From: Bryobacterales bacterium
GTDB taxonomy: Bacteria > Acidobacteriota > Terriglobia > Bryobacterales > UBA6623
NCBI GenBank assembly: GCA_963422375.2
Contig: CAXXKD010000001.1
Location: 430,769-494,768 of the forward strand
Length of the DNA: 64,000 nucleotides
Direction of reading: 5' to 3'
A program made the position numbers and the translations under genes. The notes under the pieces are model-generated. The model did not search any database, had not been told where the DNA came from, and saw only the letters and a list, made by a program, of their open reading frames with translations. Shown here one piece after another: positions 2,628 through 59,320 of this stretch. The stretch's first letter is position 1. The number at the start of each line of letters is the position of its first letter.

Positions 2628-4151
2628 GGGAATTATATATCTGAGTGCCGAAGGAATCAATTCGGCAAATTATCAAGCCATAATAAGATTTCATATTTCT
2701 TCCGATTTTCCGTTGACATTCTGTGGTTTTTCTTGGTAGAATAGTTCCAGTAGTGGATGCCGTAAATGAAGAAACCAGGCCCCGGAAAGTGGTTCCGTAA
2801 AGGCATCACATTGATCGAAGTGATCGCCATGTTCCCCGATGACGAATCCGCGGAAAAGTGGTTCGCTGCCATGTGCTGGCCGGACGGTCCCGCGTGCCCC
2901 CGCTGCCGCGGCTCCAGCGTGCAGTCCGACGCGGCCCACCCTTCGATGCCGTACCGCTGCCGCGGCTGCGGCAAGCGCTTTTCCGTGCGTACCGGCAGCG
3001 CGATGGCCGACACCAAGCTCGGCTACCGCACCTGGGCCGTCGCCCTGTTCCTGCTGACCACCGGCCTCAAGGGCGTCTCGAGCATGAAGCTGCATCGCGA
3101 CCTAGGCATCAGCCGGAAGTCGGCCTGGCACCTCGCGCACCGCATCCGCGCGTGCCGGGAGCGGGATCAGGGCCTGTTCGCCGGCCCGGCGGAGGTGGAC
3201 GAGACCTGCGTGCGTCGGCGGCAAGGAACGCAACAAGCACGAGAGCAAGAAGGCCCGCGCCGGGCGCGGGCCCGTCGGCAAGACCCCGGTGGCGGGGGTG
3301 CGGGACCGCGCCACGAACGCAGTGGCCGCGCGGCCGCTGCCGGGCACCGCCAAGGGCGACCTGCAGGGCTTCGTGCGCGCCCGCGTCGCGCCGGGGGCGC
3401 AGGTCCGCTCCGACGAGGCGGCGGCCTGCGCCGGCATGGCGGAGTTCCCGCGCGAAGCCGTCAAGCATTCCGGCGGCGAGTACGTGCGCGGGGCGGCGCA
3501 TACGAACGGCATCGAGTCGTTTTGGTCCCTGTTCAAGCGCGGCCTGTACAGAACCTATCACCGGATGAGCGTCCGTCATCTCGGCCGCTACCTCACGGAG
3601 TTCGCGGGACGGTGCAACGACCGCGACTGCGACACGGCGGAACAGATGCGGCGCATGGCGCGGGGCTTGGTCGGCCGGACGCTGACCTACCGGCAGCTGA
3701 CCGGCAAGGCCGCGGTCGCGGCCTGAGCGGCGCCCGCCGAGCTGAGCGCGGCGGCCCGCTGCGGGCGCGCTCTTCACGCTCGGTGCGCTCGGTGTGCTTC
3801 ACGCTCGGTACGAGGGGCGCACCGGATCCGGCATGCCCCGGTGCGCCCCCAGTCCGGCCGGGACCGTCCATGCAGGCCGTCGAGTGCCGGGGATCCGCTG
3901 TCTTCGGCCCTCCGAGGGCCTGCAATCGGCTTGCAAGGCGTGCCCTGCCACCGCCAACCGGGTTCCGCCGGGGCATGCGAGGCGGCCTCTCTAGTCCGTT
4001 CCTCGTCAAATCCGCTGGCAGGCTCGATTCAGATACGATCCCACCCCTCTGTGCCCATCGCGGCCGCACTCGAATGACCCGAGCTCGACACCGACCTCCC
4101 TGCTCAGAGCAGTTCTAGTCGGACATGGCGTCGTCGGCACTCAGATATATA
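2628..4151 (+). mobile_element. IS1595-family element copy 1
   Basis: Left IR GGGAATTATATATCTGAGTGCCG (2628-2650); right IR CGGCACTCAGATATATA (4135-4151), outer 6 bp lost where an ISNCY-type end starts at 4150. Confidence 0.88.
2766..3726 (+). pseudogene. IS1595-family transposase, frameshifted
   Basis: Zn ribbon CPRC...CRGC, EVDET, KTPVAG, HTNGIESFWSLFKR, YLTEF; TGCG duplicated at 3207-3214 relative to copy 2 shifts the frame. Confidence 0.9.
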
Positions 4152-4200: not shown

Positions 4201-4921
4201 CGACCGGTGCCCGGCAGCGGCCGCGCGGCCACTGCGTTCGTGGCGCGGTCCCGCACCCCCGCCACGGGCGTCTTGCCGACGGGCCCGCGCCCGGCGCGGG
4301 CCTTCTTGCTCTCGTGCTTGTTGCGCTCCTTGCCGCCGACGCAGGTCTCGTCCACCTCCGCCGGGCCGGCGAACAGGCCCTGTTCGCGCTCCCAGCACGC
4401 GCGGATGCGGTGCGCGAGGTGCCAGGCCGACTTCCGGCTGATGCCCGGGTCGCGGTGCAGCTTCATGCTGGAGACGCCCTTGATGCCGGTGGTCAGCAGG
4501 AACAGGGCGACGGCCCAGGTGCGCTAGCCGAGCTTGGTGTCGGCCATCGCGCTGCCGGCGCGCACGGAAAAGCGCTTGCCGCAGCCGCGGCAACGGTACG
4601 GCATCGAAGGGTGGGCCGTGCCGGACTGCACGCTGGAGCCGCGGCAGTGGGGGCATACCGGACCGTCGGGCCAGCGCATGGAGGCGACCACTTTTCCGCG
4701 GATTCGTCATCGCGGAACATGGCGATCACTTCAATCAGAGTGATGCCTTTACGAAACCACTTCCCTGGACTTTTCTGCTTCATGGACGACCTCATACATT
4801 GGAACTATTCTATCAAAATACTCCACCGAATGTCAACAGATCTCCGGAAGAAATATGAAATTAATTTATGGAATGATAATTTGCAAAATCGGTTGCCTCG
4901 GCACTCAGATATATAATTCCC
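4201..4921 (-). mobile_element. IS1595-family element copy 2, truncated, transposase pseudogene starting 4783
   Basis: Perfect 23-bp left IR at 4899-4921; highly similar to copy 1 (KSPGKWFRKGITL, EVDETCVGGKERNKH); frameshifted and missing its 3' half. Confidence 0.88.
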
Positions 4922-4924
4922 AAC

Positions 4925-6700
4925 CTAATCCCCTAGGGCCCCGCCGCTGTCTGCACCGTCGAGCCAATACGGCTCGCCCAACCGATACGGATCGGCGTCC
5001 TGTTCTGCTGGCGGTCGGCGGTCAATCAACCCAAAGCGCCGGACTGGACAGGCGAGCTTGCGCGCGGCGTCCGCCAGGGCCTCAGCAACGAGGCCCATGA
5101 GCGTCGTCCCGCCCGTGACGTTTACGACGACTTTGGTCGCGTCCACGAGGTCCGCACGGGCATCCTTCGTCAAGCGGTCGATTTCGGCACGCCCGCCGAA
5201 TGGATCTTTGAGACACAGCGCCTTGACTGGACCGTCATAGCCGGCTAGCGATCTCGCTTCGTCGATCTTCGGTTCAGTTTCGCGGGAGCAGATGACGAGA
5301 CACAGTGCTGGCTCTCCGTCGCACACTCTCAAAGCGCTGAACAGCACGCCAGGCCTCATTCCGATAGGGCTAACGAGGACCTGCCCGCGCGGGTTGCCGA
5401 ACGCTAACGACACACGCGGACAATGCCGGAGTGTTTCTCGCCAGTACTTCTCGACATGATCGCGATTTTTCCTGGTCTTCTTGCTGTCAACGAGCGGCTC
5501 TAGGCGCATTCCGTGATGCGCATACCCGTTACGGAGCTGCCTAAGTTGGCCCCAGTACGTTCCAAGCGCCCGCTGATCATCTGTCAGTTTGTGCTTGAGC
5601 TTGCTGCCATCCCTCCCTATATTTTCGATTGCGCCGAGAAGTGTGGCGGCACTGCGTCGCGCGGTGTCGTAGTCGAGCCATCTTCCCTCTTCGCCCTGAA
5701 GCAGTATTGCCCACGAGACGGTCCACTCGCTCAGAAGCCCGAGCGCGGTCGGCATATTCCTGCGATCCAGCAGGTCGTCGATGACGCAGGCCTGCCGCTT
5801 TAGCTCGCGCTCGGTCAGCCGGATCTGCCCCTTCCATCCGTCACCCTCGAACTTTTGGTCGCGAAGCGCGAAGGGCTCGAGGGTCGTGTGGATGCGATCG
5901 CAAAGCTCATTGCCCAAGGGCAGGCGGTAGTGGCCCGTGAGGAGTCGTCGCAGCGGCTTGCGGAAACGCTCGCGGATTCGGCTTGCCTTCGCCCCTAGCT
6001 CGATCGGAAGCCCCGAGAGACAGGCTTCCGATAGCTCAGTCAGTTCAGGTTCGATCTGCTGATTCTGTTGGTTCGAAGGAGCCTCCCGGAGGAGTTTAAC
6101 CATCGGCAAGGCGCTCCCCGTGTCACGCAGAACCCTGAGCGCGTAGAGCCACTCGGGCAGCTCCAGAAGCGGCTTCAAGTCAAGAAATGGACTGGCTTCT
6201 CCGCGCCGCAGCAGACCGTAGTAGGCGGCGCGCACCCGAACCTCTCGAAGAGCAGCCACGTACAGAACTGCGATGTAAGTGAGAAAAGAGAAATGACGGA
6301 AGCCATGCGTAACATCGACGGTGATCTCAACCTCCGAAGGAATGGCTTCTGTGACGCATTGCAGGAACTCGTCTACCTGCTCGGGAGTATCGCCGCCCGA
6401 AACTTGGACAAGGTCCATGCAGTACCGGTCGCCAAGAGCCCGCTGGAGAACGGGCCAGCTCTCGTCTTTCGCTTGCGGCGTACACAGAGCCAAGACGCGA
6501 TGCGGCCGCGCGGCCTCCGGCAGCAGCTCGAGCAGAGCAACGGGCGCGAGCTGGGCTTGGGTTGTGAGATCACCTAGGGAATAGGACGCCAGGCTCGGAT
6601 TCGTTCCGAGCACCGTGAGCAGAATAGTCTCCGGCACGGCGGCACCCGAGCCACTGGGCGTGGCTGCCCAAGGTTCCGATGGGCTGTCCGTTTCGCTCAT
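4925..6700 (-). CDS. Csx1/TM1812-like CRISPR-associated CARF-HEPN ribonuclease with additional C-terminal CARF-like domain
   Basis: N-terminal CARF with VDVTHGFRH (DxTHG) and DLKPLLELPEW; HEPN RNGYAH (Rx4H); C-terminal VLVSPIGMRPGVLFSAL...VNVTGGTTLM; ATG 6700 with GAGG upstream. Confidence 0.88.
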   Translation of the reverse strand: MSETDSPSEPWAATPSGSGAAVPETILLTVLGTNPSLASYSLGDLTTQAQLAPVALLELLPEAARPHRVLALCTPQAKDESWPVLQRALGDRYCMDLVQVSGGDTPEQVDEFLQCVTEAIPSEVEITVDVTHGFRHFSFLTYIAVLYVAALREVRVRAAYYGLLRRGEASPFLDLKPLLELPEWLYALRVLRDTGSALPMVKLLREAPSNQQNQQIEPELTELSEACLSGLPIELGAKASRIRERFRKPLRRLLTGHYRLPLGNELCDRIHTTLEPFALRDQKFEGDGWKGQIRLTERELKRQACVIDDLLDRRNMPTALGLLSEWTVSWAILLQGEEGRWLDYDTARRSAATLLGAIENIGRDGSKLKHKLTDDQRALGTYWGQLRQLRNGYAHHGMRLEPLVDSKKTRKNRDHVEKYWRETLRHCPRVSLAFGNPRGQVLVSPIGMRPGVLFSALRVCDGEPALCLVICSRETEPKIDEARSLAGYDGPVKALCLKDPFGGRAEIDRLTKDARADLVDATKVVVNVTGGTTLMGLVAEALADAARKLACPVRRFGLIDRRPPAEQDADPYRLGEPYWLDGADSGGALGD

Positions 6701-6996
6701 CTGCGAGCCTCGGTAAACGCATTGTAGGGAACGCACAACGTGGGCTGGCACTAACCAGCTTGACTCTCTGACAGCCGTCCTCCCCGTCGAGCCCTCGGAA
6801 GTGGAGCTGTCACAATGGGCCTACTTCTCCATCGGACTTGGCCGCCGCGCATGTGGTCGCGCAGCACGGACTGGATCCGCAGTAGCATACTGAAGCACGT
6901 CCAAGTATCGTCGGGGATGTTTCTGCGGAGTGGCGGGTACTACTCCCGATGGAAAGACCTCTGCCGACCACCCCGTCTTGGCCTAGCATACAGTTA

Positions 6997-8048
6997 CCTG
7001 ATTACCCACACGACTCAGCAAGGTTAGGAGGCGGCAAGGCATGGGCGGGGTGCGCACCGGAGGCGTGGAGCAGGCGGGGGACCAGCGCCTGCAGATCGTA
7101 GCGGCGGTTGAGGTGGTTGAAGCGGTAGCAGAACTCGGCGAGGTACCGCGGCAGGTGCTTGCCGTCGAGCGCATGGCAGGTTCCCGCCAGGGACTGCTTG
7201 ACGTTCGCCGGCATCGTGTCGACCCGGACGAAGCGGGAATCCCCGCAGCTCCGCTGCCCGCCTGCGGTGACGGCCGGCACGTGCTCGCAGCCGGCGCCGG
7301 CCACGCCCCGCAAGCAGGCCGGGCCGTCGGCATGCACCTCCGTGCCGGGCTGCAAGTGCCGCCCGGCCCACGCTGCCAGCGTCTTCTTGCGGAAGCCCGC
7401 CACGCTGCTCATGCGCATCCTTGCCGGCTTGCCGTCGGCGGTGACCTGGTTGACCTGCACGGCGGCGACGAACGGCGTCTTGCCCGCCGCGCCGCGACCG
7501 CGCTTGCCGGCCGGTCCGCTCCCCGCCCCAGTAGGCGTCGTCCACCTGCACGATGCCGCCCAGCGGCACGCGCTCGTCGCGCTCCTTCAGCACTTGCAGA
7601 AGCTTGTGCTTCACCCTCCAAGCCGTGTTCCGGCTCACGCCCAGCTGCCGCGCCAGTTCCAGCGACGAAACGCCGTGCTGGCCCGGCGTCAGCAGGTGGA
7701 TCGCTAGGAACCGGACGGTCAGCGGCAGCTGGGTGGCGGCGCAGATCGTGCCGGCGACCAGGGAGGTCCGGCGGTGGCAGGCATGGCACTGCCAGAGCTT
7801 GCGGGAGCGGATGCGGCAGTGCCGTCGGGAGCCGCACTCCGGGCAGCGGAAGCCGTCCGGCCAGCGGGCGTTGAAAACGGCGTGCTCGCATGGCCTCTCG
7901 CTGCCGTAGCGCTGCAGGAACTTGCCCGGGCTGAGTCCCTTCTGGAATTGCACGCGATTGCGTTTCATCCGCTAGCCCCCTTCCTATCAGAGATTTCCGA
8001 CCTCCTCCAGTATAGCATATCCTCGGCTGACGTTCGTTGGTAATCAGG
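6997..8048 (-). mobile_element. IS1595-family (ISSod11-like) element with frameshifted transposase (7968 to ~7002)
   Basis: Imperfect IRs starting CCTGATTACC at 6997 and 8048; protein VQFQKGLS...RWPDGFRCPEC, VQVDDAYWGG, KHLPRYLAEFCYRFN split over two frames. Confidence 0.88.
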
Positions 8049-10360: not shown

Positions 10361-10849
10361 CTTCTTCTCGAACCCGGGGCTGACCGCGCGCACCGTCTTT
10401 CTGCCCGGCGACAGGCCCAAGCAGAAGTTCAAGAAGAATATTCTCAATGGCACGAACGGCGGCCCGATCGCGAGGAATTTGACCTGCTTCCTCGGGTCGT
10501 TCGAGGGGGTTGCGCTCCGAGCGGTCCCTCGCGAACGCGGTCCGGACCTTCTCGACGTCTTTCGGGCCGCTCGCGGAGAGTCCGGGCGGGCGCTTGCCAG
10601 CGCATCCCGGATCGGACATAATGGGAACGGCGGGCCTTGGGCTTGCCCGTGGCAGCTTCCAACCTCGGTATGGGCTGGGGTGCTGCCGGGAATCGTCTAG
10701 GTCAGCGATGGCTTTGGGCGCGCTCGGAAACTATGGATTGAGTCGGACCGGTCCTCGGCCGGGCCGACCTGCGGATTGCGAGGCGATTAGCGCAAGCTTC
10801 TGCGCCGACCAGTCCTGCCGTGCGGGCGCGGCGCGCCCTTGATGGATCG

Positions 10850-11758
10850 ATGCCCAAGGCCGTCAAGGAATTCGCTCGCAGCGTCGCGAAGAAGATCCGT
10901 CTGATCGAGATTCAGACCAGCAAGGCGGTCGACGACGTCCTCGCCGGCGAGTACAGTAGCGTCTTCAAGGGCAGCGGCATCGAATTCGAGGAAGTCCGCG
11001 AGTACGCCCCCGGCGACGAGATTCGCAGCATCGACTGGAACGTCACCGCGCGCATGGGCAAGCCCTTCGTCAAGCGCTACGTCGAGGAGCGCGAGCTGAC
11101 CGTCTGGCTGCTCGTGGATCTCTCGGCCTCCGGGGCGTTCGGGAGCCGCAGCGAGCTCAAGAACGAGGCGGCAGCCGAGTTCTGCGCGCTGCTCGCCTTC
11201 GCCGCCATCCGCAACAGCGACAAGGTCGGGCTGATCGTCTTCACGGAGCGGGTCGAGCTGGCGATCGCCCCGAGCAAGGGGCGCACGCACGTCCTGCGGC
11301 TGATTCGCGAGGTGCTGCGCTTCGCTCCGCGGGAGCGCGGGACCGATCTCGCTGCGGCCCTCGAGTACCTGGGCCGGGTCACGCACAAGCGCGGCGTCGT
11401 CTTCCTCGTCTCCGATTTCCTCACCGCCGCCCCGCTGGAGCGGGAGAGCGGCAAGCAGCTGCGCGTCCTCGCGCGCCGGCATGACCTGATCGCCGTGACG
11501 GTCGGCGACCGGCGCGAGCTCGAGCTGCCGGACGTGGGACTCATCGAACTGGAGGACGCCGAGACCGGTCGGTGCGTCCTCGTGGACACCTCGAGCAAGC
11601 GCGTGCGCCGGGAGTACGCGGCCGACGCGCGCCGGCGGGGCGAGCGCAGACGGGACTTCTTTCGCGCCACGGGCATCGACGAGGTCGCGATCATGACCGG
11701 CCAGGACTACGTGCGCGACCTCCTGCGGCTGTTCCGGAAGCGCGGCAGGAGGCGATGA
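10850..11758 (+). CDS. DUF58 domain (vWA-like, MoxR-associated) protein
   Basis: GEYSSVFKGSGIEFEEVREYAPGDEIRSIDWNVTAR, EERELTV, DLSASG, FLVSDF. Confidence 0.93.
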   Translation: MPKAVKEFARSVAKKIRLIEIQTSKAVDDVLAGEYSSVFKGSGIEFEEVREYAPGDEIRSIDWNVTARMGKPFVKRYVEERELTVWLLVDLSASGAFGSRSELKNEAAAEFCALLAFAAIRNSDKVGLIVFTERVELAIAPSKGRTHVLRLIREVLRFAPRERGTDLAAALEYLGRVTHKRGVVFLVSDFLTAAPLERESGKQLRVLARRHDLIAVTVGDRRELELPDVGLIELEDAETGRCVLVDTSSKRVRREYAADARRRGERRRDFFRATGIDEVAIMTGQDYVRDLLRLFRKRGRRR

Positions 11759-48285: not shown

Positions 48286-48966
48286 ATGCGACCGTCCGTC
48301 AATTTCTCTCCCCTGACGCCGCTCTCCTTCCTCGATCGCAGCGCGCTCGTATACCCCGACAAGCCGGCCGTGATCCACGGCGAGGTCATCTACACCTACT
48401 CCGAATTCGACCGGCGCGCCCGGCGTCTGGGCGCCGCGCTGCAGGCACTGGGAATCCGTCCCGGCGACCGCGTGGCGATCCTCGCGCCCAACGTCCCGGC
48501 CATGCTGGAGGCCAAGTTCGGCCCGATGCGCGTCGGGGCGATTCTGGTGCCCCTCAACACGCGCTTGAAGCCGCCCGAGATCGCGTACATCCTCAATCAC
48601 TCGGGGGCGAAGGTCCTGATCTTCGACTCGGAGCTTGCCGAAACCGTGCGCGGCCTGCGGAATAAGGTGCTCGGGGTCGAGAACTACGTCCAGGTCGTGG
48701 ACGCGGCACCTCGTGCAGACGACATTTCCGGCCCGGAATACGAGGAGTTCCTGGACGCGGCGCCGGCCCAGCCCGACGAGTTCGCGCTTGCCGACGAGCG
48801 CGACGCGATCTGCATCAACTACACGTCCGGCACGACGGGCTTTCCCAAGGGCGTTGTCTTCCACGCCCGCGGCGCTTGGATCAACGCGATCGGCGAGGCG
48901 CTCGAGACCGGCTTGAACTGGGGTTCCGTGTATCTGTGGACGCTCCCGCTGTTCCACTGCAACGGC
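48286..48966 (+). pseudogene. Acyl-CoA synthetase 5' half, truncated at the prophage junction
   Basis: PLTPLSFLDRS, NYTSGTTGFPKGV, TLPLFHCNG, then homology lost where W is expected; read-through stops at 49023. Confidence 0.88.
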
Positions 48967-49094
48967 GACCGCCGCTCCGGCCGTCGGCCCTCCGCCGCCG
49001 GTACCGACGGACAAATCCAGTAACCACAACGGTTTGCGGCAGGACGCCGCTGCGCGCGGGACGCGAGGGGAAAGCGCTGTTCGCGGCGCATTCC

Positions 49095-49141
49095 GTCCAC
49101 AGAGCGTCCACGCGAGCGGATTCTGTCCACGTTCCGTCCAC
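49095..49141 (+). promoter_or_regulatory. Four GTCCAC direct repeats, candidate integrase arm-type sites
   Basis: GTCCAC at 49095, 49106, 49125 and 49136 (two pairs, 11-bp spacing); role inferred. Confidence 0.5.
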
Positions 49142-49626
49142 GCCCCCGGGGCCGCGGACGGCCAGTAGATTTCCTCGCCCGCGAGGGCGAGCGGCTCCAA
49201 GCGGGCAGCCGCCGGCTATCGCGCCGGGCAAGCAGCGGGACGGCCGGGGATCTGTCGTGGGTCGCCTTCCCGAAGCGGAGAGAAAACCGCGGAAACCGCA
49301 GCTTGCAAGCCCCCTGCAGGGTCGTCAGGGCCGGTGACCCGGCCCCTTCCGCGGCGCAATCGCCGGGAGCGGAAGGGGCCGGGCCGCTAATCCGGGCTGC
49401 AGGCAAGAGGTACAGGCTCCGCGCCGCCGAAGATCCGAGGCGCGGGAGCGAAGCGACGCCCGGCTCCACGCCGAGTTCTGCTTCGCAGGGGGGGCGCGCT
49501 TAGGCCAAGCCCCCCCTGCGCTTCGCTCCACCCTCACCATCCAAGTTAGAGGGCCTCGGGGCGCGAAGGGGAGGCGCAGGGAGCCGGGAGACAGGGAGCG
49601 GGCGAGGCGAGAGGCGGCCGGATCGG

Positions 49627-49662
49627 GGACCCGGGGGAGGACCCGGGGGAGGACCCGGGAGA
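49627..49662 (+). repeat. 12-bp tandem repeat x3 (GGACCCGGGGGA)
   Basis: Direct reading; one mismatch in the third copy. Confidence 0.85.
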
Positions 49663-49720
49663 GGCGGATCCGGGCGAGATTGCCGCGATCCCTTAACGGG
49701 TTCGAAGCGCGAGCGGCCTC

Positions 49721-49852
49721 TCGCGGCTCGCGGCGGCACGGATACGATCCGCAACGGGGCTCGCGGCTCGCGGCGGCACGGATACGATCCGCAACGGGGC
49801 TCGCGGCTCGCGGCGGCACGGATACGATCCGCAACGGGGCTCGCGGCTCGCG
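49721..49852 (+). repeat. 40-bp perfect tandem repeat x3.3
   Basis: TCGCGGCTCGCGGCGGCACGGATACGATCCGCAACGGGGC at 49721, 49761 and 49801, plus a 12-bp partial copy. Confidence 0.96.
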
Positions 49853-50046
49853 TGCCGGTCCGATGGTGTACCATGGATTCAGCCGCCCTTCGCAGGCGGC
49901 GGCCCGACTCCTGGCGGGCCGGACGGTCCGACCGTCCAAAAACAACCGTAGCCGGGAACGCCGCGCCCCCCGTGCGCCTTCCCTCGGCGCCCGGCCGGGC
50001 GCGAGCCGACCCGGCCCTGCTGCGCCGCGGCCGACCATGCCGAGGG

Positions 50047-50304
50047 ATGGAATACCGATTCGCCGAACCCGTGCTCCTGTACTGCGGGGGCATGCGCATG
50101 CGCGCCCTGCGAGCCGAGGAGGCGCTGCGCCTGATCGCGCGCGGCAGCGTGGCTCGGCCGCGGCGCAAGGTGGTGCGCTACCTCGAGATCCGCCACCCGG
50201 GCGCGAAGGGGCTGCCCGGCCGGACCGCCGGCTGGCGCACGGTCTACCGCGAGCGGCTCGGGAGCGGCGGCACGGTCTGGCAGCACCGCTTCGCCCGCCT
50301 TTAG
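50047..50304 (+). CDS. Phage hypothetical protein (85 aa, basic)
   Basis: GAGGG before ATG; phage-like codon usage; first gene of the late cluster. Confidence 0.6.
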   Translation: MEYRFAEPVLLYCGGMRMRALRAEEALRLIARGSVARPRRKVVRYLEIRHPGAKGLPGRTAGWRTVYRERLGSGGTVWQHRFARL

Positions 50305-50365
50305 CGCCTTTAGCGCGGATCTGCCAGAAAATCTTACAAGGGAACAGTCAGGGAACCTGAGCGGA

Positions 50366-50782
50366 ATGCTGTCGCGGAAGCCGGCCGGGGAGCGCCCGGG
50401 CCGGCGCGGCTCGTCGGCGAGCCGGGGCTACGGGCACCGCTGGCGCCTGGCCCGCGCCGGCTACCTGCGCCTGCATCCGCTGTGCCGGCCGTGCGCGCGG
50501 GCGGGGCGCGCGCGGGCGGCCGCGGTGGTCGATCACGTGCGGCCCCACCGGGGCGACCGGGCCCTGTTCTGGGACCCGGCCAACTGGCAGCCGCTGTGCC
50601 GGCCGTGCCACGACTCGCGCAAGCAGCGCGAGGAGCGCCGCGGCTACGCGGCCGGGCCGGGTCCGGACGGCTGGCCGGCGGACCCGCGGCACCCGGCCAA
50701 CCGGCAGGGGGGTAGGGGGGGCGAAAACCCCGCCCGCCCGCCCCGAGACCGGATTCGGGCGAAAAAAATCGCTAAAGCGTAG
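50366..50782 (+). CDS. HNH endonuclease (HK97 gp74-like terminase partner)
   Basis: HPLCRPC, VVDHVRPHRGD..LFWD..NWQPLCRPCH. Confidence 0.92.
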   Translation: MLSRKPAGERPGRRGSSASRGYGHRWRLARAGYLRLHPLCRPCARAGRARAAAVVDHVRPHRGDRALFWDPANWQPLCRPCHDSRKQREERRGYAAGPGPDGWPADPRHPANRQGGRGGENPARPPRDRIRAKKIAKA

Positions 50783-50792
50783 GAATTTCGCA

Positions 50793-51221
50793 TTGGACAA
50801 CCAGCGCGGCCGCAAGCCGGCGGCCCGGCTCCCCGCGCCCGACGCGGGCGCGATCCAGGTGCTCGAGCGCCAGCCGCCCCCGGAGCGGCTGAGCGCGTCC
50901 GAGCGGGCCGCGTGGGCCGAGGTGGTCGACGGCATGCCCGCGGAGTGGTTCTCGGGCCCGTCGATCGCGCTGCTGGAGCAGTACTGCGGCCACGTGGCCT
51001 CGGCGCGGCGCATCGCGGCGTGGATCGCGCTGGCCGAGAGCGAGGGCCTCGGAGGCGGGGGCGCGAGCCTCGACGAGTACGAGCGCCTGCTGCGCCTGCG
51101 CGAGCGCGAGACGCGGGCCGTGGCCAGCCTGGCCACGAAGATGCGCATCTCGCAGCAGGCCACGATCAACCAGCGCGGCAATCCGGCCGTCGCGCGCGGG
51201 AGCAAGCCGTGGGAGTGCTGA
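50793..51221 (+). CDS. Terminase small subunit
   Basis: PPERLS..ERAAW, LLEQYC, helical; lies between HNH and TerL. Confidence 0.8.
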   Translation: MDNQRGRKPAARLPAPDAGAIQVLERQPPPERLSASERAAWAEVVDGMPAEWFSGPSIALLEQYCGHVASARRIAAWIALAESEGLGGGGASLDEYERLLRLRERETRAVASLATKMRISQQATINQRGNPAVARGSKPWEC

Positions 51222-52762
51222 AGCGCTCGACGCGCAACGCCCGCTGGATCGAGCGCTACTGCCGCGTGCCCGAGGGCCGGGACGTGGGCCGCGCGCTGAA
51301 GCTGCGGCCGTTCCAGCGCCGCATCCTGCGCCTGATCTACGACAACGCCGCCGGCACGCGCACGGCGATCGTGTCGATGGGCCGCAAGAACGGCAAGACC
51401 ACCCTGCTGGCCTGCCTGCTCCTGCTGCACCTGGCCGGGCCCGAGGCCCGGCCCAACGCGCAGCTCTACTCGGCGGCCCAGTCGCGGGACCAGGCCGCCC
51501 TGCTGTACGGGCTGGCCGCGAAGATGGTGCGGCTCTCGCCGGACCTGGCGGGCCACGTGCGCGCCCGCGAGACGGCCAAGCAGCTGCTCTGCCCCGAGCT
51601 GGGCACGGTCTACCGGGCCCTCTCGGCGGAGGCGAGGACGTCCTACGGCATCAGCCCGACGTTCGTCGTGCACGACGAGCTGGGCCAGGTGCGCGGGCCG
51701 CGGTCGGAGCTCTACGACGCCCTCGAGACGGCCGTCGGGGCGCACGAGGAGCCCCTCACGGTGATCATCTCGACGCAGGCGCGGCGCGACGAGGACCTGC
51801 TCTCGCAGCTGATCGACGACGCCGCGGCCGGGCACGACCCGCATACCGTGCTGGCGCTGTGGACGGCCGATCCGGAACTGGACCCGTTCGGCGCGAAGGC
51901 CATGCGGCAGGCCTGCCCGGCCTACCGCGACTTCCTCGTGGCCGGCCAGGTGCGGCAGCTCGCGGAGCGGGCCCGGCGCATGCCCAGCCGCGAGGCGGCC
52001 TACCGCAACCTGATCCTCAACCAGCGCGTCGCGGACAAGGCCGAGAGCTGGCTGACGGCGGCTCTGTGGCGCTCCGCCCAGGCGGACCTGGACCTCGCGG
52101 GCTACGCGGGCCGGCCGTGCTGGGGCGGGCTGGACCTCTCCCTGACCAAGGATCTGACGGCGCTGGTGCTGGCCTTCGAGGCCGGCGCGCGGCGCTGGGA
52201 CGCGTTCGCTTGGCACTGGATGCCGGGCGACCGCGTGGCCGAGGCCTGCGAGACCGACGGGGCGCCCTACGACGCCTGGCGGCGCGAGGGCTTCCTGCGG
52301 GCGCCGCCGGGCCCGGTGGTCGACTACGCCCGCGTGGCCCGCGAGCTGGCGGGCCTGTGCGAGCTGTACCGCGTGCGCGAGATCGCCTACGACCGGCACA
52401 AGGTCGAGCTGCTGCGGCACGAGCTGGACAGGATCGGGCAGCGCGTGCCGCTGGCTCCGCACGGGCAGGGCTTCGCCAAGTCCTCCGAGACGGGCATGTG
52501 GATGCCGGGCTCGATCGAGGAGACCGAGGCGGCCCTGCTCGAGGGCCGCCTGCGGGTCGCGCGCAACCCGCTGCTGACGTGGTGCGCGGGCAACGCGGTC
52601 TGCGTGCCCAGCTCCCTCGAGCCCGCCGACCGGCGCTTCGACAAGCGTCGCGCGACGGGGCGCATCGACGGGGCGGTGGCCCTGGTGCAGGCCCTCGGGG
52701 CGGCCACGCGCCTGCCCCGGGGCCCGCGGAAGATCCGCTTCGAGAGGCTGGCGGTGGCATGA
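51215..52762 (+). CDS. Terminase large subunit
   Basis: Walker A GRKNGKTT, Walker B VVHDE, nuclease GGLDLS...RIDGAVAL. Confidence 0.95.
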   Translation: MLKRSTRNARWIERYCRVPEGRDVGRALKLRPFQRRILRLIYDNAAGTRTAIVSMGRKNGKTTLLACLLLLHLAGPEARPNAQLYSAAQSRDQAALLYGLAAKMVRLSPDLAGHVRARETAKQLLCPELGTVYRALSAEARTSYGISPTFVVHDELGQVRGPRSELYDALETAVGAHEEPLTVIISTQARRDEDLLSQLIDDAAAGHDPHTVLALWTADPELDPFGAKAMRQACPAYRDFLVAGQVRQLAERARRMPSREAAYRNLILNQRVADKAESWLTAALWRSAQADLDLAGYAGRPCWGGLDLSLTKDLTALVLAFEAGARRWDAFAWHWMPGDRVAEACETDGAPYDAWRREGFLRAPPGPVVDYARVARELAGLCELYRVREIAYDRHKVELLRHELDRIGQRVPLAPHGQGFAKSSETGMWMPGSIEETEAALLEGRLRVARNPLLTWCAGNAVCVPSSLEPADRRFDKRRATGRIDGAVALVQALGAATRLPRGPRKIRFERLAVA

Positions 52763-52917
52763 CGCGCGAGCGCCTGCGCACGGCGGCGGCCGTCGAGTCG
52801 CTGGCCGGGGCGGCGACGGCCTGCGCGGGCCTGTGGTCGTGGAGCCCGCCGGCGGCCCTGGTGTGCCTGGGGGCCCTGCTGATGCTCGACGCCTGGCGGC
52901 TGCGGGAGCGCTGCTGA
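52759..52917 (+). CDS. Small hydrophobic phage protein between TerL and portal
   Basis: ATGA overlap; two hydrophobic segments; usual position in HK97-like clusters. Confidence 0.65.
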   Translation: MTRERLRTAAAVESLAGAATACAGLWSWSPPAALVCLGALLMLDAWRLRERC

Positions 52918-52921
52918 GCCG

Positions 52922-54211
52922 ATGCTGAGCCACCTGGCGGAGCGCCGCGCGGGGCGGCATCCCCGCGACCCGGCCCTGGCCTCCCTGCTGGGCGCGCCCG
53001 CCGCGACGGCCGCGGGCCGGGCGGTGGACGAGCGGGAGGCGCTGGGAGCGACCGCGGTCTACGCCTGCGTGCGCAACACGGCCGAGACGCTGGCCGAGAT
53101 GCCCTGCCGCCTGCGGCGGGTGGCGCGGGACGAGGCCGGCCGCGAGCGCGGCGAGGACGCCCTGGGGCACCCGCTGCGCCGGGTCCTGCTCGAGGCGCCC
53201 AACGCGTGGCAGACGGCCTTCGATTTCTGGGAGTGCGTGGTCGAGCATCTCGAGCTGAGAGGCAACCACTACTCGGTGGTGCGGCGCGACGGGGCCGGCC
53301 GGGCGGCCGGGCTGGAGCCGCTGCATCCCGACCGGGTGGACGTGCGCTGGGATCCGTCCGAGCGGGCCCCCGGCCGGCGGCCGCTGTACCTCGTGGAGGG
53401 GGAGGCCGGCCGGTCCGCGCTGTGGCCGGGCGAGATCTTCCACGTGAGGGGGCCGATGCAGGGCGACGGCCTGCTGGGCTCCTCCCCGATCCGCATCCAC
53501 CGCGAGACGGTCGGCATGGCCCTGGCGGCGCGCGAGTACGGCGCGCGCCTGTTCGCGAACGACTCGCGCCCGGCCGGGGTGATCGAGACCGACGGGGTCT
53601 TCGAGGACGAGTCGCGACGGGAGGAATTCAAGCGGCAGTGGAGGGAGTCCTACGCCGGCCAGCAGCGCCACGGGGTGGCGGTGCTCGAGGCGGGCCTGCG
53701 ATTCAAGGCCATCGGCATGAGCAACGGCGACGCGCAGTACATCGAGCTGCGCGGCTTCACCGACCTCGAGATCGCGCGGCTGTTCCGCGTCCCGCCGTAC
53801 AAGATCGGGGTGCTCGAGAAGAGCACGCTGAACAACGTGGAGCAGCAGAACCGCGCCTGGGTGACCGACAAGCTGGCCCCGCTGGCGCGGCGCATCGAGG
53901 ACGCCGTCCAGCGCGACCTGATCGCGCCCTCGAGCCGCGGCTCGCTGCAGGCGCGCTTCGATTTCTCGCAGCTGCTGCGGGGCGACGTGCGGGCGCGGAC
54001 CGAGGCCAGCGCGCGGGGCATCCAGTGGGGCTGGCTGAGCCCCAACGACGTGCGGGCCCGCGAGGGCCTCAATCCGATCGGGCCGGCAGGCGACGTGTAC
54101 GTCTCGCCGGTGAACATGCGGCCGATGGCGGACCTGCTGGACGGGTCCGGCGGCCGGGAAGAGGGCGCGGAAGAGGGAGGCGGCGATGGAGCGCAGGGCG
54201 CTGGAGGCTAG
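52922..54211 (+). CDS. Phage portal protein (HK97 family)
   Basis: AVYACV, PNAWQT, LRGN, EIARLFRVPP, SPNDVRAREGLNP. Confidence 0.95.
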   Translation: MLSHLAERRAGRHPRDPALASLLGAPAATAAGRAVDEREALGATAVYACVRNTAETLAEMPCRLRRVARDEAGRERGEDALGHPLRRVLLEAPNAWQTAFDFWECVVEHLELRGNHYSVVRRDGAGRAAGLEPLHPDRVDVRWDPSERAPGRRPLYLVEGEAGRSALWPGEIFHVRGPMQGDGLLGSSPIRIHRETVGMALAAREYGARLFANDSRPAGVIETDGVFEDESRREEFKRQWRESYAGQQRHGVAVLEAGLRFKAIGMSNGDAQYIELRGFTDLEIARLFRVPPYKIGVLEKSTLNNVEQQNRAWVTDKLAPLARRIEDAVQRDLIAPSSRGSLQARFDFSQLLRGDVRARTEASARGIQWGWLSPNDVRAREGLNPIGPAGDVYVSPVNMRPMADLLDGSGGREEGAEEGGGDGAQGAGG

Positions 54212-54746
54212 CGGGCTGGAGGCGCGCGCCGGGGACGGCGCCGGGCCGCCCCGCCTGGAAGGGCACGCGGCGGTCTTCGGGGTCGAGGCGGACGTGGCGG
54301 GGATGTTCCGCGAGCGGATCGAGGCGGGGGCCTTCGCGGAGACGCTCGCGCGGGACGACATCCGGGCGTTGCGGAACCACGACCCGGGGCTCGTGCTGGG
54401 GCGCACCAGGGCCGGCACGCTGCGCCTGTCCGAGGACGGGCGCGGGCTGCTGGCGACGATCGACCCGCCGGACGCCGGCTACGCCCGCGACCTGATCGAG
54501 TCGGTGCGGCGCGGGGACGTCAGCGGCATGTCCGTCGGCTTCGCCGTGCTCGACGAGGCGTGGGGCATGGAAAGCGGCGTCGCGATGCGCACGCTCCGCA
54601 AGGTCAAGCTCTACGAGGTGTCGGTGGTGACGTTCCCGGCCTACGCCGAGACGGACGTGTCGCTGCGCTCGCTGGAAGCCCGGCGGGCGCCGTGGCGGCG
54701 CGCGCTGGCCAGGCGCCGCCTGGAGCTGGAGGAGGCCCGGGCCTGA
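54186..54746 (+). CDS. HK97 family prohead protease
   Basis: GHAAVF, NHD, GMSVGF, LYEVSVVTFPAY. Confidence 0.95.
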   Translation: MERRALEASGLEARAGDGAGPPRLEGHAAVFGVEADVAGMFRERIEAGAFAETLARDDIRALRNHDPGLVLGRTRAGTLRLSEDGRGLLATIDPPDAGYARDLIESVRRGDVSGMSVGFAVLDEAWGMESGVAMRTLRKVKLYEVSVVTFPAYAETDVSLRSLEARRAPWRRALARRRLELEEARA

Positions 54747-54789
54747 GGCCCGGCGGGACGGCCCCGACGGGGCCGGAAGGAGCAATCCG

Positions 54790-56004
54790 ATGGAGATTCG
54801 GGAGCTGCAGGAGCAGCGGGCGAAGGCCGTGGCCGACGCCAGGGCGGTGCTGGACCGCGCCGAGAAGGAGAACCGCGACCTCGGCGCCGAGGAGCGGGCG
54901 GCCTACGAGCGGGCCCTGGCCGCGGCCGGGGCGCTGAAGGACCGCATCGAGCGGCGCCGGCGGCAGGACGACCTCGAGCGCGACATGGCCGCGCTGGAGC
55001 CGCCGCCGACGGCCCGCGGCGGCGAGCGGCGCTCGCGCGAGGAGCTGGTCCGGGACGGGTTCCGCGCGTGGATCGTCAGCGGCCGCGAGGCCCGCGACGA
55101 CGAGGCGGCCCGCGAGTTCCGCGGCCAGACCGCGGGCAGCGCCGCCGAGGGCGGCTTCCTGACGGTCCCGGAGCGCTTCGTGACCAGCCTGATCCAGGGC
55201 CTGGACGACGCCGTCGTGATGCGCGCCTGGGCCACGATCTACCAGGTCAACGGGGCCGACAGCCTGGGCGTGCCCACGCTGGACCGCGACCCGGACGACC
55301 CGGACTGGACGACCGAGCTGCGCACGGGCTCCGAGGACGAGGGCATCCGCTTCGGGAAGCGCTCGCTGCACCCGCACCCGCTGGCCAAGCGCGTGCGCAT
55401 GAGCAACGAGATCCTGCGGCGGGCCGTGCTGCCGGTGGAGACGATCCTGCGGCAGCGCCTCGAGTACAAGGTGGCCGCGGCCCAGGAGCGGGCCTTCCTC
55501 GCCGGCAGCGGGGCGCACCAGCCGCTGGGCGTGTTCGCCGTCTCCGACGACGGCATCCCGGCCGCGCGCGACGTGGCCCAGGGCAACAAGGCGACCGAGA
55601 TCACCTTCGACGGGCTGATCGGGGCGAAGTTCAGCCTCAAGGGCGGGCACCGGCGCGCGGCGCGCTGGATCTTCCATCGCGACGCGCTCGAGAAGCTGGC
55701 CAAGATCAAGGACAAGGACGGGCGCTACATCTGGTCGGGCTCGGTGCGCGAGGGCGAGCCGGACCGCCTGCTCGGCCTGCCGTTCTTCGAGTCGGAGTTC
55801 GCTCCGCGCAAGTTCGTCTCGGGCGAGACGGTCGGCATCCTGGGCGATTTCCGGCACTACTGGGTCGCCGACGACATGCGGCTGCAGGTCAAGAGACTGG
55901 AGGAGCTGTACGCCGAGACCAACCAGGTCGGCCTGATCCTGCGGGCGGCCACCGACGGCATGCCGGTGCTGGCGGAAGCCTTCGCCCGCGTGAAGCTGGC
56001 CTAG
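54790..56004 (+). CDS. Major capsid protein (HK97 fold, coiled-coil delta domain)
   Basis: GGFLTVPE, KDKDGRYIW, RLLGLP, GDF, AF; GGAG RBS. Confidence 0.95.
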   Translation: MEIRELQEQRAKAVADARAVLDRAEKENRDLGAEERAAYERALAAAGALKDRIERRRRQDDLERDMAALEPPPTARGGERRSREELVRDGFRAWIVSGREARDDEAAREFRGQTAGSAAEGGFLTVPERFVTSLIQGLDDAVVMRAWATIYQVNGADSLGVPTLDRDPDDPDWTTELRTGSEDEGIRFGKRSLHPHPLAKRVRMSNEILRRAVLPVETILRQRLEYKVAAAQERAFLAGSGAHQPLGVFAVSDDGIPAARDVAQGNKATEITFDGLIGAKFSLKGGHRRAARWIFHRDALEKLAKIKDKDGRYIWSGSVREGEPDRLLGLPFFESEFAPRKFVSGETVGILGDFRHYWVADDMRLQVKRLEELYAETNQVGLILRAATDGMPVLAEAFARVKLA

Positions 56005-56032
56005 GGCCAGCCTGGGGAAAGAGGAGGGGAGC

Positions 56033-56455
56033 ATGAGAGCCCTGATCGACCGGGTCCGCGTGATGCGGACCAGCAACGCGGCGGCCGCCGGCAAGACGGA
56101 CGTCGCCGACGGCACGGCCGTGGACTCGAGCAACTACGAGGGCACGCTGTTCGTGGCGGCCGTCGGGACCGTCGTCGACGGCGGCGCCACGGCCGTGCAG
56201 GTCGTGGCCAGCGACGAGTCGGACATGAGCGATGCGGAGGAGGTGGCCGCGGTGGCCGTGCCGGACGGCGGCAGCGACAAGCTGGTGACGATCGACGTGC
56301 GCTACGCGCAGCGGCGCTACCTGCGCTGCGTGGTCAAGCGCAAGACCGCGAACGCGACGCTCGACGGCGTCGTGGCGCTGCAGTACGGGCCGCGCCGCGA
56401 GCCGGCGCCCCGGCACTCGACGGTGCTGGCCTCGGTCCGGGCGGCGGACCACTAG
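56033..56455 (+). CDS. Phage structural protein (possible head decoration)
   Basis: Beta-rich, RRYLR motif, directly after capsid, strong RBS. Confidence 0.6.
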   Translation: MRALIDRVRVMRTSNAAAAGKTDVADGTAVDSSNYEGTLFVAAVGTVVDGGATAVQVVASDESDMSDAEEVAAVAVPDGGSDKLVTIDVRYAQRRYLRCVVKRKTANATLDGVVALQYGPRREPAPRHSTVLASVRAADH

Positions 56456-57012
56456 TGCGGACGCTGGAAGCGCTGGACGATCCCGGCGGCCCGCCGCTGG
56501 GCCTCGACGCGGTCAAGGCCCACCTGCGGATCGAGGGGGAGGGCGAGGACGAGGCGGTCCGGCTGATCGCCGCGGCCGCCGCGGCCCGGGCCGAGTCCTT
56601 CGCCCGGCTGGGCCTGTCGGCGCGGCGGATGCGGCTGACGCTGGACGGCTTCCCGCCGGGAGGGCGGCCCGCGCAACTGCCGCGGCCGCCCGTGCCGGAG
56701 GTGGAGTCGGTCCTGTACCTGGGCCCCGACGGGGCCCAGCGCGAGCTGCCGGCGGACGGGTACCGCCTGGACGCGGCGCGCGGCCGGATCGCCCCGGCCG
56801 GCGGCGCCTGGCCGGCCGCGGCCCCCGCCCCGGGGTCGGTGGCGGTGACCTACCGGGGGGGCTACGCGCGGGCCGCGGACGTGCCCGCGCCCGTGCTGCA
56901 GGCGGTCCTGCTGATCGCGGGGAGCCTGTACGAGCATCCCGACGGGGAGGGGCCCGGGCTGCCGGCCGCGGCGCGGTCGCTGCTGGCCCCCTACCGCCGG
57001 ATTGCCGCGTGA
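56455..57012 (+). CDS. Head-tail connector/adaptor (gp6-like)
   Basis: LDAVKAHLRI, VPAPVLQAVLLIAGSLYEH, LLAPYR. Confidence 0.88.
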   Translation: MRTLEALDDPGGPPLGLDAVKAHLRIEGEGEDEAVRLIAAAAAARAESFARLGLSARRMRLTLDGFPPGGRPAQLPRPPVPEVESVLYLGPDGAQRELPADGYRLDAARGRIAPAGGAWPAAAPAPGSVAVTYRGGYARAADVPAPVLQAVLLIAGSLYEHPDGEGPGLPAAARSLLAPYRRIAA

Positions 57013-57022
57013 AGGAGGAACC

Positions 57023-57352
57023 GTGAGAGACGCGCTGATTTTCCTCGCGCTCGCCGCGACGGCCCTGGCGGGCATGGGCGCGGTGGACGCGCTGGCCGGG
57101 CCGCGGCCCGGCGAGCTGGAGCGGGCCCTGGCGGCGTGGCTGGGCAAGACGTTCACCTGCGCCGGGGCCACGCTGTTCTTTCTCGGGATGAAGAGGGCGC
57201 TCTTCCCCGAGTTCGACATCTTGAGGGTGATCCACGGCGAGCCGCCGTTCAGCCCGCACGGGGAGGACGTGCCCCGGGCGGCCTACATCGTGGGCTGGTG
57301 CCTGCTGTACGGGGCGACGCTGCTGGCCTTCGGCTGGGGCGGGGCGTACTGA
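57023..57352 (+). CDS. Putative holin (three TMs)
   Basis: AGGAGG RBS; three hydrophobic segments; directly precedes the endolysin. Confidence 0.6.
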   Translation: MRDALIFLALAATALAGMGAVDALAGPRPGELERALAAWLGKTFTCAGATLFFLGMKRALFPEFDILRVIHGEPPFSPHGEDVPRAAYIVGWCLLYGATLLAFGWGGAY

Positions 57353-57891
57353 TGCTCCTGCTGGCCGCGGCCCTGCTGGCGGTGCCGTGCGAGCTGGCCC
57401 CGGTCTTCGAGGCCGAGCTCGGCCGCGCCGGGGCGGCGGCGATGCGGGCCGAGCTGGCCGCGCAGATCCACCGCGAGTCGTCGTGGCGCCCGCGGGCGCG
57501 CTCGCGCTACGCCAGCGGGCTGGCCCAGTTCACCCCGCCGACGTGGAGCGACATCGCGCCGCTGACGGTCCCGCCCTGCGACGGGGCGGACCCGACCGAC
57601 CCGGGCTGCGCGATCCGGGCCCAGATCGTCTACATGCGGCGGCTGCTGGCGCGCTACCGCTTCGACCGCGACCGGTGGGAGTTCGCGTGGGCGGCCTACA
57701 ACGGCGGCCCGGGCTGGATCGGGCGCGAGAAGTCGCGCTGCCGGCGCGAGCCGGGCTGCGACCCGCGGCGCTGGACGGGCCACGTCGAGCGGCACTGCAT
57801 CCGGGCCGCCTGGGCCTGCGCGGAGAACCGCGCCTACCCGGCGAAAGTCGGGGGCCTCGTGCCCCTGTACCGGGAGGGCGGCTGCCGCTAG
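57352..57891 (+). CDS. Lytic transglycosylase (SLT) endolysin with N-terminal hydrophobic leader
   Basis: IHRESSW (catalytic E), GLAQF, AYNGG; several Cys. Confidence 0.88.
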   Translation: MLLLAAALLAVPCELAPVFEAELGRAGAAAMRAELAAQIHRESSWRPRARSRYASGLAQFTPPTWSDIAPLTVPPCDGADPTDPGCAIRAQIVYMRRLLARYRFDRDRWEFAWAAYNGGPGWIGREKSRCRREPGCDPRRWTGHVERHCIRAAWACAENRAYPAKVGGLVPLYREGGCR

Positions 57892-57910
57892 CGGGCCGGA
57901 AGGGAATCCG

Positions 57911-58126
57911 ATGAAGAATCCGATGAAGACGCTGGGGCTCGCGGCCCTGGGCTGCGCCTCGATCGTGCTCGCGTTCCTGTGGGCGATGAACGTGCACGAG
58001 CTGGGGCAGCGGATAGAGCGGATGGCCTTGCTGGCGTTCCAAATCGGGCCGGCGGTGGTGTTCGTGTCGTGCGGCGCGCTGGCGCTGCATTTGGCCTGGC
58101 AGTGCGCCCGGGGGGACTGCGAGTGA
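57911..58126 (+). CDS. Small two-TM phage protein
   Basis: Two hydrophobic helices; coupled to the next gene. Confidence 0.6.
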   Translation: MKNPMKTLGLAALGCASIVLAFLWAMNVHELGQRIERMALLAFQIGPAVVFVSCGALALHLAWQCARGDCE

Positions 58127-58452
58127 CCATGATCGAAGCGTTGTGCACGGCCCTGGCGCTGGCGTTCCTGTCGCCGCTGGCGGCGTTCGGGGCGGCGGCC
58201 TTCGTCGAGGGCGGGCGGCGGCGGCGGGCTTACCGCCGGCTGGCGTCCGACCCCCTGGTGCGCGTCGGAGCGGCCATCGAGCGGCTGGAGATAGAGGGCC
58301 TGCCGCACACCGCCCTGCGGGACTGCCGGATCGTCGAGTTCGGGGTCGGGCGCATGGCCGTGCGGGACGCCCGGGGCGCGGTGATGACGTTCACCGGGCG
58401 GGAGTTCGAGCGCTTGCACCCCGTGTTCGCGCCGCCCGAGGAGCGGTCGTGA
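58123..58452 (+). CDS. Membrane-anchored phage hypothetical protein
   Basis: N-terminal TM then small beta domain; GTGA overlaps. Confidence 0.55.
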   Translation: MTMIEALCTALALAFLSPLAAFGAAAFVEGGRRRRAYRRLASDPLVRVGAAIERLEIEGLPHTALRDCRIVEFGVGRMAVRDARGAVMTFTGREFERLHPVFAPPEERS

Positions 58453-58670
58453 CGGCGTTCCGGCCGCGCCCCGTGCCTGTCGCGGCGCTGTTCGCGGGGC
58501 TCGTATTGCTCGCGAACGCGCGCTGGCTGGAGATCGCCTGCGGCCTGCTGCTGGCGGTCGGCGGGCTGGCGGCCACGCTGCAGTCCGGGGCCTGGTCGGC
58601 GCTCTGCGGGCCTCTCGAGCGGCTGGCGGAGGCCTGGGAGGCCCGGAACCGCCGCAAGGGGGGCGCGTGA
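58449..58670 (+). CDS. Small hydrophobic phage protein
   Basis: GTGA overlaps at both ends; two hydrophobic segments. Confidence 0.55.
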   Translation: MTAFRPRPVPVAALFAGLVLLANARWLEIACGLLLAVGGLAATLQSGAWSALCGPLERLAEAWEARNRRKGGA

Positions 58671-59317: not shown

Positions 59318-59320
59318 GGA

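Follow-up and report, generated by a model that had tools for sequence, protein, structure and literature searches.

Several described proteins resemble parts of the one considered here. SyCsx1 of Synechocystis (TIGR02221, pSYSA) is an RNase of 422 amino acids (aa) that is switched on by cyclic tetra-adenylate (cA4). Mutants at its DxTHG, Arg and HEPN His sites show these residues to be essential, and a ring nuclease, SyCsm6, is encoded separately at the same locus (PMC9676260). Csx1-Crn2 of Marinitoga (8Y6Z/8Y7G) carries, behind a CARF-HTH-HEPN core, a C-terminal DUF1874/Crn2 domain, which is a fast ring nuclease that depends on His and bears no relation to CARF (bioRxiv 2020.03.11.987685). 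Finally, Csm6-2 (CARF-HEPN-CARF-HEPN, about 795 aa) is a fused monomer from III-D loci that is activated by cA6/cA5 (PMC11229360). Here we analyze a gene for a Csx1-family protein of 591 aa in a 64,000-nucleotide stretch of a Bryobacterales genome (6.0 Mb on three contigs, C1, C2 and C3; 96.4% complete). The stretch, C3:430769-494768, is called the window. The protein shares with SyCsx1 24% identity over 401 columns and the essential residues, but SyCsx1 has no second CARF. It shares with Csx1-Crn2 the core (residues 23-431; Z 16.5, root mean square deviation (rmsd) 4.2, 379 aligned) and the presence of a C-terminal nucleotide-handling domain, which, however, has a CARF fold. A DUF1874/Crn2 domain was not found in it, and the alignment with 8Y7G reaches residues 23-431 only. 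Csm6-2 likewise has two CARFs and HEPN in one chain, whereas the window protein has a single HEPN and belongs to a III-B family.

The CARF-HEPN-CARF architecture is already catalogued, as the original prediction, which was made from the DNA alone, had allowed. The PADLOC model PDLC01840 (CARF2--CARF_HEPN_CARF) matches residues 25-584 with an E-value of 1.6e-138, and 415 relatives of similar length were found among 8000 scored candidates, the best being 59% identical. The PADLOC names of the type CARF2--CARF_HEPN_CARF presumably derive from Makarova et al. 2020. We found no biochemical study of a CARF-HEPN-CARF fusion in the literature, though Makarova et al. 2020 may cover it, and in the literature searched the string 'CARF-HEPN-CARF' occurs only inside Csm6-2. 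The window protein differs from the PADLOC family only in its setting: the gene is stranded between insertion sequence (IS) elements and does not head a cmr operon.

We propose, with a probability of roughly 70% for the account as a whole, that the gene encodes a Csx1-family effector which was the first gene of an acquired III-B operon and was stranded by IS-mediated deletion, and that the III-B system on contig C1 could activate it in trans. The gene would once have headed a horizontally acquired operon of the order csx1-cmr1-cas10-cmr3-4-5-6. An IS1595-type element would have inserted just past its stop codon, and the numerous IS copies would then have given rise to a deletion or recombination that took away the operon together with the upstream neighbour, leaving the gene intact. 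By homology, the protein would act as a dimer whose paired N-terminal DxTHG CARFs bind Cas10-made cA4 and turn on a composite HEPN RNase site. The paired C-terminal CARFs would provide another two-fold pocket for nucleotides and attenuate the response by cleaving or binding cA4. The C1 III-B system, which is intact but unrelated and is the sole source of cyclic oligoadenylate (cOA) found, could turn the protein on in trans provided that the gene is expressed; transcription running on from IS-B, which has the same orientation, is one way in which this could happen.

The open reading frame (ORF) has zero internal stops. An alternative upstream start, GTG at 6751, would yield 608 aa, and the gene call in the public database begins at residue 156, dropping most of the sensor domain. 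The locus is not an assembly artefact, since an independent contig from run X4 spans 4897-7068, including both IS ends, with 0 differences, and sequence pieces from runs X6-X8, from three other studies, also match the gene with 0 differences. All four motifs named in the original prediction are present (DVTHGFRH 129-136; RNGYAH 390-395, an Rx4H; SPIGMRPG 444-451; NVTGGTTLM 527-535). The assignment as a Csx1-like RNase is borne out by matches above cut-off to TIGR02221 (80.5 bits, cut-off 76.25) and TIGR02549 DxTHG (27.9, cut-off 21). Pfam gave sub-threshold CARF matches only, and a PDB sequence search with the whole protein gave nothing significant. The AlphaFold model of the full protein (mean predicted local distance difference test (pLDDT) 90.9) consists of a CARF, a helical/HEPN region and a second alpha/beta domain, and its top Foldseek match is Csx1-Crn2 (8Y6Z, E 1.3e-14). 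The HEPN region aligns with 8Y7F (Z 16.3, rmsd 3.9, 224 aligned). The DxTHG motif and R390-H395 are invariant in 112/112 sequences. D129/H132/G133/R135 align with D114/H117/G118/R120 of SyCsx1 and H395 aligns with its H388. By this residue match the protein is probably a cA4-activated dimeric RNase.

The gene neighbourhoods of relatives point to a III-B origin. We surveyed 48 relative loci, a few of them near-duplicates. In 36 of them cmr1 or cas10 lies directly downstream, and in three there are Csx7/Csm3-type RAMPs (L051 and L058 were scanned; the C-terminal domain of L052 is identical in sequence to that of L051), so that type III genes directly follow in 39 altogether. No type III gene lies downstream in five, and four are too short to tell. 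The gene follows a type I-G cas5/6g in seven relative loci, and in the genomes G421, G073, G128, G927 and G601 it lies inside a III-B operon. GGDD is present in 27 of the 28 family-linked Cas10s. At E <= 0.001, a set of 50%-identity representatives contains 560 proteins of the family. It is patchy, however, among close relatives of the organism, with the gene present in 1/30 congeners and in 1/400 other genomes of the class (E <= 1e-60). This patchy presence and the G+C content at third codon positions (0.69 for the gene vs 0.92 for two neighbours) point to horizontal acquisition. In the sole congener with the gene (L075, G421:C2:555000-574999) the III-B operon has a cas10 split by about 1.6 kb.

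In the window itself the gene occupies a single-copy stretch of 2.07 kb that is bordered by two IS1595-family elements of high copy number, IS-A and IS-B. Genome-wide searches agree with the claim that cas10, RAMP genes and an array are missing from the window. The genes for Cas10, RAMPs, Cas1 and Cas2 are confined to contig C1, as is the sole CRISPR-sized array found in the genome, and there is no cas10 or RAMP on C3; the gene is thus not in a type III locus, which speaks against present operon membership but not against Csx1-like action. The distant type III system that the prediction had invoked does exist, as the C1 III-B locus. The cognate cmr operon is absent from the assembly: the Cmr proteins of relatives match only those of C1, at 28-32% identity over the longer matches. 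Moreover, the C1 Cas10 scores a median of 88 bits against the family-linked Cas10s, compared with 399 among these. A paralogue on C2, 51-60% identical to the window protein and not its sister in a quick tree, terminates a I-G locus and is interrupted by an IS-B copy flanked by an 8-bp duplication; downstream, an IS lies at the expected place of cmr1. That locus (C2:111874-122401, L015) is a decaying type I-G locus, with cas3 in two frames and a short cas8g ORF. The tree covers residues 298-586 in 79 rows after duplicate loci were dropped, and no starred clade in it includes the window protein. Operon loss is the simplest account, because the IS-A end replaces cmr1, the cognate Cmr genes are absent and the C2 paralogue shows the same loss. 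One outcome named in advance as refuting the original prediction, a leftover of a deleted type III operon under neutral evolution, therefore largely describes the origin of the gene, given the 36/48 loci and the IS end at the place of cmr1, although the gene shows no decay.

Several points weigh against operon loss. The locus yielded no recognisable trace of cmr1 or of the former upstream gene, so the deletion itself is one that we infer. The absence of a target-site duplication around IS-B says little, since 31 of its 80 full copies in the genome lack one too. Five of the 48 loci have no downstream type III gene, and one such lineage is under purifying selection as judged from its sequences, so isolation can be stable in this family. 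This lineage is a trio of the three-domain gene immediately upstream of folC, where no cas genes were seen (L020:448-2223, L023:9944-11725, L025:3110-5050), which forms one clade in the quick tree. Its dN/dS (non-synonymous over synonymous substitution rate) is 0.24-0.37 at dS 0.26-0.36, with 0.17-0.33 for the folC control, and its orphan status is based on 10 kb upstream (L023) and 9-10 kb downstream (L020, L025). At L020 a TIGR02710 CARF gene lies 4 kb downstream of the three-domain gene. Moreover, at 96.4% completeness a cognate operon could be unassembled, the closest kin, P0005 and P0006, fall outside the neighbourhood comparison, and cA4 as the ligand, like all activities, is assigned by analogy.

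The third domain is a genuine CARF by structure prediction, as had been suspected. Modelled alone it takes a CARF fold with Can2 as the best match (8Q3Y, Z 14.9, rmsd 2.6, 133 aligned). Other CARF matches have best Z-scores of 14.3, 13.1 (Card1) and 11.9 (second CARF of Can1), and Crn1 (7YGH) reaches 11.7 (rmsd 3.0, 137 aligned), compared with 8.9 for the first non-CARF structure. A homodimer model through the NVTGGTTLM helix scored 0.73 vs 0.01 for the best control, the mark for this score being reached by 20/30 solved pairs and 1/23 single chains. Contacts agree between runs to at least 76%, with pLDDT of at least 86. This pass may reflect likeness to solved CARF dimers. Crn1 (Sso2081) resembles the domain in its fold and in the predicted dimer via the motif II helix, but it is a stand-alone protein, whereas the third domain is fused and has GxRPG and GGTT where Crn1 has GTS (motif I) and GRK (motif II). 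GTS and GRK are proposed as marks of cOA-cleaving CARFs and tied to catalysis (PMC10018336). The Can1, Can2 and Card1 CARFs, the best structural matches, differ in being N-terminal or internal sensors of PD-(D/E)xK nucleases, and the two CARFs of Can1 pair within one chain (bioRxiv 784280). NVTGGTTLM resembles NLNSGTTAM in the second CARF of Can1, so that the GTT motif is common to both. R449 is kept in 108/112 and T532 and T533 in 112/112 sequences. All 47 C-terminal domains compared match the three PADLOC CARF_HEPN_CARF models PDLC01838-40, and 45 match CARF4 models. The third domain has 52 short matches (47-73% identical), which may be fragments, and stand-alone CARF clusters in the Atlas score 0.86-0.90 against it; the latter are leads only.

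The reading that the third domain is a ring nuclease with a chemistry other than that of Crn1 falls a little short of even odds in our estimate. R449, T532/T533, R555 and D560-R562 would take part in it, and the protein would be self-limiting like Csx1-Crn2, which is its best whole-protein structural match. The named residues are conserved in 108-112 of 112 sequences. Sister PADLOC models of the clade have Csx3, Csx16, Csx20 or Unk_f1 in the same C-terminal slot, and such fusions are interpreted as regulatory (PMC8284326). Moreover, in a scan of 20 operons at related loci, with a lossy filter and without a positive control, filtered ORFs within 2.5 kb or less matched no stand-alone ring nuclease model. 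The nearest match was a short fragment in L041, to part of the CARF7-DUF2103 model. For comparison, about 34% of single-effector Csx1 loci carry a stand-alone ring nuclease (bioRxiv 2024.09.24.614671). However, the motifs are not those of Crn1, and the nearest folds are the CARFs of Can2 and Card1, which leave cA4 uncleaved. The earlier suggestion of a self-limiting effector thus stands as plausible by analogy, while the Crn1 motifs GTS and GRK are absent.

We consider it possible, though with less confidence, that the domain is a non-catalytic cA4 binder, either a threshold-setting sink or a second allosteric site. The structural matches to Can2, Card1 and Can1, together with the CARF4 matches of 45/47 domain sequences, agree with this, as does the GTT motif; in the second CARF of Can1, Thr384 stands in for the usual Lys and contacts cA4 (bioRxiv 784280). 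The CARF Z-scores, however, lie close together (14.9 to 11.7), and a common fold says nothing on function. A stoichiometric sink would also be a weak off-switch against amplified cA4.

Whether the stranded protein could receive a signal depends on the C1 locus, which consists of cas2, cas4-cas1, a 31-repeat array, an intact CARF1-HEPN gene and cmr1-cas10-cmr3-4-5-6. There, cmr1, cas10, cmr3, cmr4 and cmr6 are free of internal stops; cmr5 was assigned by eye from the translation. The C1 Cas10 has DGD and GGDD motifs and no HD motif. The locus also has a TIGR02221-like CARF2-HEPN gene of its own (C1:389755-392151, L014), which a frameshift, a truncation and a DDE transposase have broken. The genome gave no match to a PF10040 Cas6, but the Cas5/6g of an uninterrupted type I-G locus on C2 (C2:289512-295937) could process the C1 crRNA. 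Twelve of the 30 C1 spacers (C1:378282-380516) match two prophage-like regions of the same assembly, compared with 3/600 for shuffled spacers. Most of these matches have a 5' TTC/TTN flank and several have 0 mismatches. One targeted region is a phage head-tail module at 49-64 kb of the window. If the array is read on the + strand, as the repeat end and the side of the protospacer-adjacent motif suggest, up to four spacers (6, 15, 16 and 21; 15 is uncertain) would pair with mRNA. With the Cas10 cyclase motif, the Cas5/6g and the prophage-matching spacers, signal, guide and trigger are all present, and because the C1 array matches resident prophages, activation in trans would be possible. That spacers match the genome itself although it has an uninterrupted I-G locus suggests that the I-G system is silent, that an anti-CRISPR is at work or that the population is mixed. 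The prophage module (48961-64000, the end of C3) encodes terminase, portal, protease, major capsid, endolysin, neck and tape measure proteins. It is present in three copies that are more than 99% identical (also C1:1-21509 and C2:1307817-1350163), with several contig ends inside; either the prophage has several copies or the assembly may have produced them.

It is a tentative suggestion, compatible with operon loss, that selection now keeps the stranded gene as a trans effector or attenuator of the C1 III-B system, firing on prophage transcription. The gene is off consensus at 6 of 192 conserved columns, compared with a median of 5 in the other 111 sequences (47/111 have at least 6). The features of C1 just described fit this reading, namely the cyclase motif without HD, the broken CARF2-HEPN gene, the Cas5/6g supplied from C2 and the spacers that match prophages and may pair with mRNA. 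So do the dN/dS values of the folC-linked trio, and inter-locus signalling has been proposed before (PMC11229360). However, the flanking IS elements carry private substitutions at only about 0.4% per site (3-4 per copy, with 0-2 indels; the nearest copy is 3-4% away). This is so little time that an unselected gene could easily stay intact, and the intactness of the gene is uninformative on selection; dating by these mutations did not separate selection from recent isolation. Neither a sigma-70-like promoter nor a terminator was found in the 296 bp upstream of the gene. Two other intact CARF-HEPN genes, the one in the C1 locus and a second detached one (C2:1150225-1151523, L084:7226-8521; CARF1-HEPN with Rx5H, far from any cas10), make the window gene redundant. 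Having the same Cas10 in the cell did not keep the C2 paralogue from decaying. Elsewhere in the family, G258 retains only a fragment of the gene, after a I-G locus, and the draft genome G020 has an orphan copy; no cas10 was found in either. In G274 cas10 lies on a different contig from the relative.

A bolder combination of these ideas is unlikely in our view. It holds both that the C-terminal CARF (GxRPG/NxTGGTT/DRR) is a ring nuclease or cA4 sink of an undescribed kind, with a chemistry unrelated to that of Crn1, and that stranded copies, including the folC lineage, are kept as trans modules plugging into a non-cognate Cas10.

The original prediction also held that the gene was moved by IS ends. 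We give very little credence to such a cargo, mobilised as a composite transposon. IS ends do flank the gene, at distances of 3 bp and 296 bp, the two elements belong to the IS1595 family and have many intact copies, and the gene is patchy within the genus. However, the two ends come from different elements with different inverted repeats and no mutual blastn similarity, so that a simple composite transposon is excluded. The segment occurs as a single copy with no duplication around the unit. The C2 paralogue is only 51-60% identical and not a sister in the quick tree, and no full-length relative was found in IMG/VR, GenBank phages or plasmids; plasmids have only two-domain TIGR02221 proteins. 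No IS-A end elsewhere in the genome carries a matching flank, and no swapped target-duplication partner of either IS end was found on the gene side. Run X4 has one contig-level joint across 4923-6997; its short sides measure 23 letters, and it is consistent with IS copies that lie next to each other elsewhere. IS-A and IS-B together make up 4.7% of the genome. Among the 80 full IS-B copies, an 8-bp target duplication is seen in 45 and none in 31. The gene had further been described as intact amid dead transposons. The ORF is intact and its neighbours are broken IS pieces, including the full-length copies at 2628-4151 and 6997-8048, which have no uninterrupted transposase ORF. The two families are not dead genome-wide, however, since a motif test found an uninterrupted single transposase ORF in 49/70 and 30/83 of their full-length copies.

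That the protein answers a nucleotide signal not made by Cas10, such as a product of an anti-phage signalling system based on cyclic oligonucleotides (CBASS), is the least credible proposal: the gene is isolated from cas10, and no cas10 was found in the draft genomes of two relatives, G020 and G290 (in the latter the gene lies near a contig end), but a search of the genome found no SMODS cyclase, the family goes together with Cas10s that have GGDD and the sensor residues match those of the cA4-specific SyCsx1.

The coordinates of the features are collected in Table 1. The 296-bp remnant upstream of the gene was considered as the end of a cas5/6g gene, and this was rejected: the best score of a small profile, 2.6 bits, was equalled or exceeded by 93 of 3000 random controls. 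A tblastx comparison of the remnant with the collected relative loci gave nothing convincing. IS-B often lies directly against one end of a different repeated element, the flanking sequence being the same (the flank at window position 8049 and at least seven other sites), possibly an insertion hotspot. Across the IS cluster, an FG-GAP-repeat gene (1549-1854), which is cut at 1852, is linked to a DUF58 gene (10820-11758), which suggests a rearrangement junction. MoxR, which we take to be the usual upstream partner of DUF58 genes, was not seen upstream of this one. A distant relative of the window gene, L081:1708-3651, lies beside a CRISPR-associated primase-polymerase and cas4/cas1.

Table 1. 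Positions of the features in the window (contig C2 where stated) and the basis of each assignment.
Feature	Position	Strand	Basis or remark
Gene for the 591-aa CARF-HTH/HEPN-CARF Csx1-family protein	4925..6700	-	profiles, fold model, Foldseek
GAGG, probable ribosome-binding site	6708..6711	-	7 nt 5' of ATG 6700; putative, from sequence
N-terminal DxTHG CARF sensor, ~residues 24-180	6161..6631	-	D129, H132, G133, R135 invariant
Helical linker and HEPN RNase domain, ~residues 181-431	5408..6160	-	fold match, conservation
R390-N391-x3-H395 (HEPN Rx4H)	5516-5533	-	conserved 112/112
Second CARF domain, ~residues 438-584	4949..5389	-	fold model, dimer model, conservation
Motif I GxRPG	5348-5371	-	in C-terminal CARF
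Motif II NxTGGTT	5096-5122	-	in C-terminal CARF
DRR, residues 560-562	C-terminal CARF	-	conservation
Single-copy 296-bp remnant between start codon and IS-B	6701..6996	.	genome comparison
Truncated IS1595-family element IS-A (~120 related genome matches)	4205..4921	-	end 3 bp past stop, at the start position of cmr1 in relatives
Second IS-A copy, transposase frameshifted, right end clipped	2628..4151	+	genome comparison
IS-B, distinct IS1595-family element (~100 matches), broken transposase, no target-site duplication	6997..8048	-	co-oriented with gene
Spacer targets	window 53227, 53441, 53966, 55675, 55881, 63139; C2:2.41-2.45 Mb	.	spacer matching

As a locus, the window gene is a case of ordinary CRISPR operon decay in an IS-rich genome. 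The protein family, however, is widespread, and its extra CARF lies outside the published ring-nuclease motif rule; the domain could widen this rule or prove to be a cA4 sink built into the protein. If the combined reading were true, a family of several hundred proteins would be self-limiting Csx1 enzymes, and the stranded copy would tune how a distant III-B system, with spacers against prophages of the same cell, responds. With one Cas10, two detached intact CARF-HEPN genes and prophage-matching spacers, this genome is a natural test of cOA signalling between loci.

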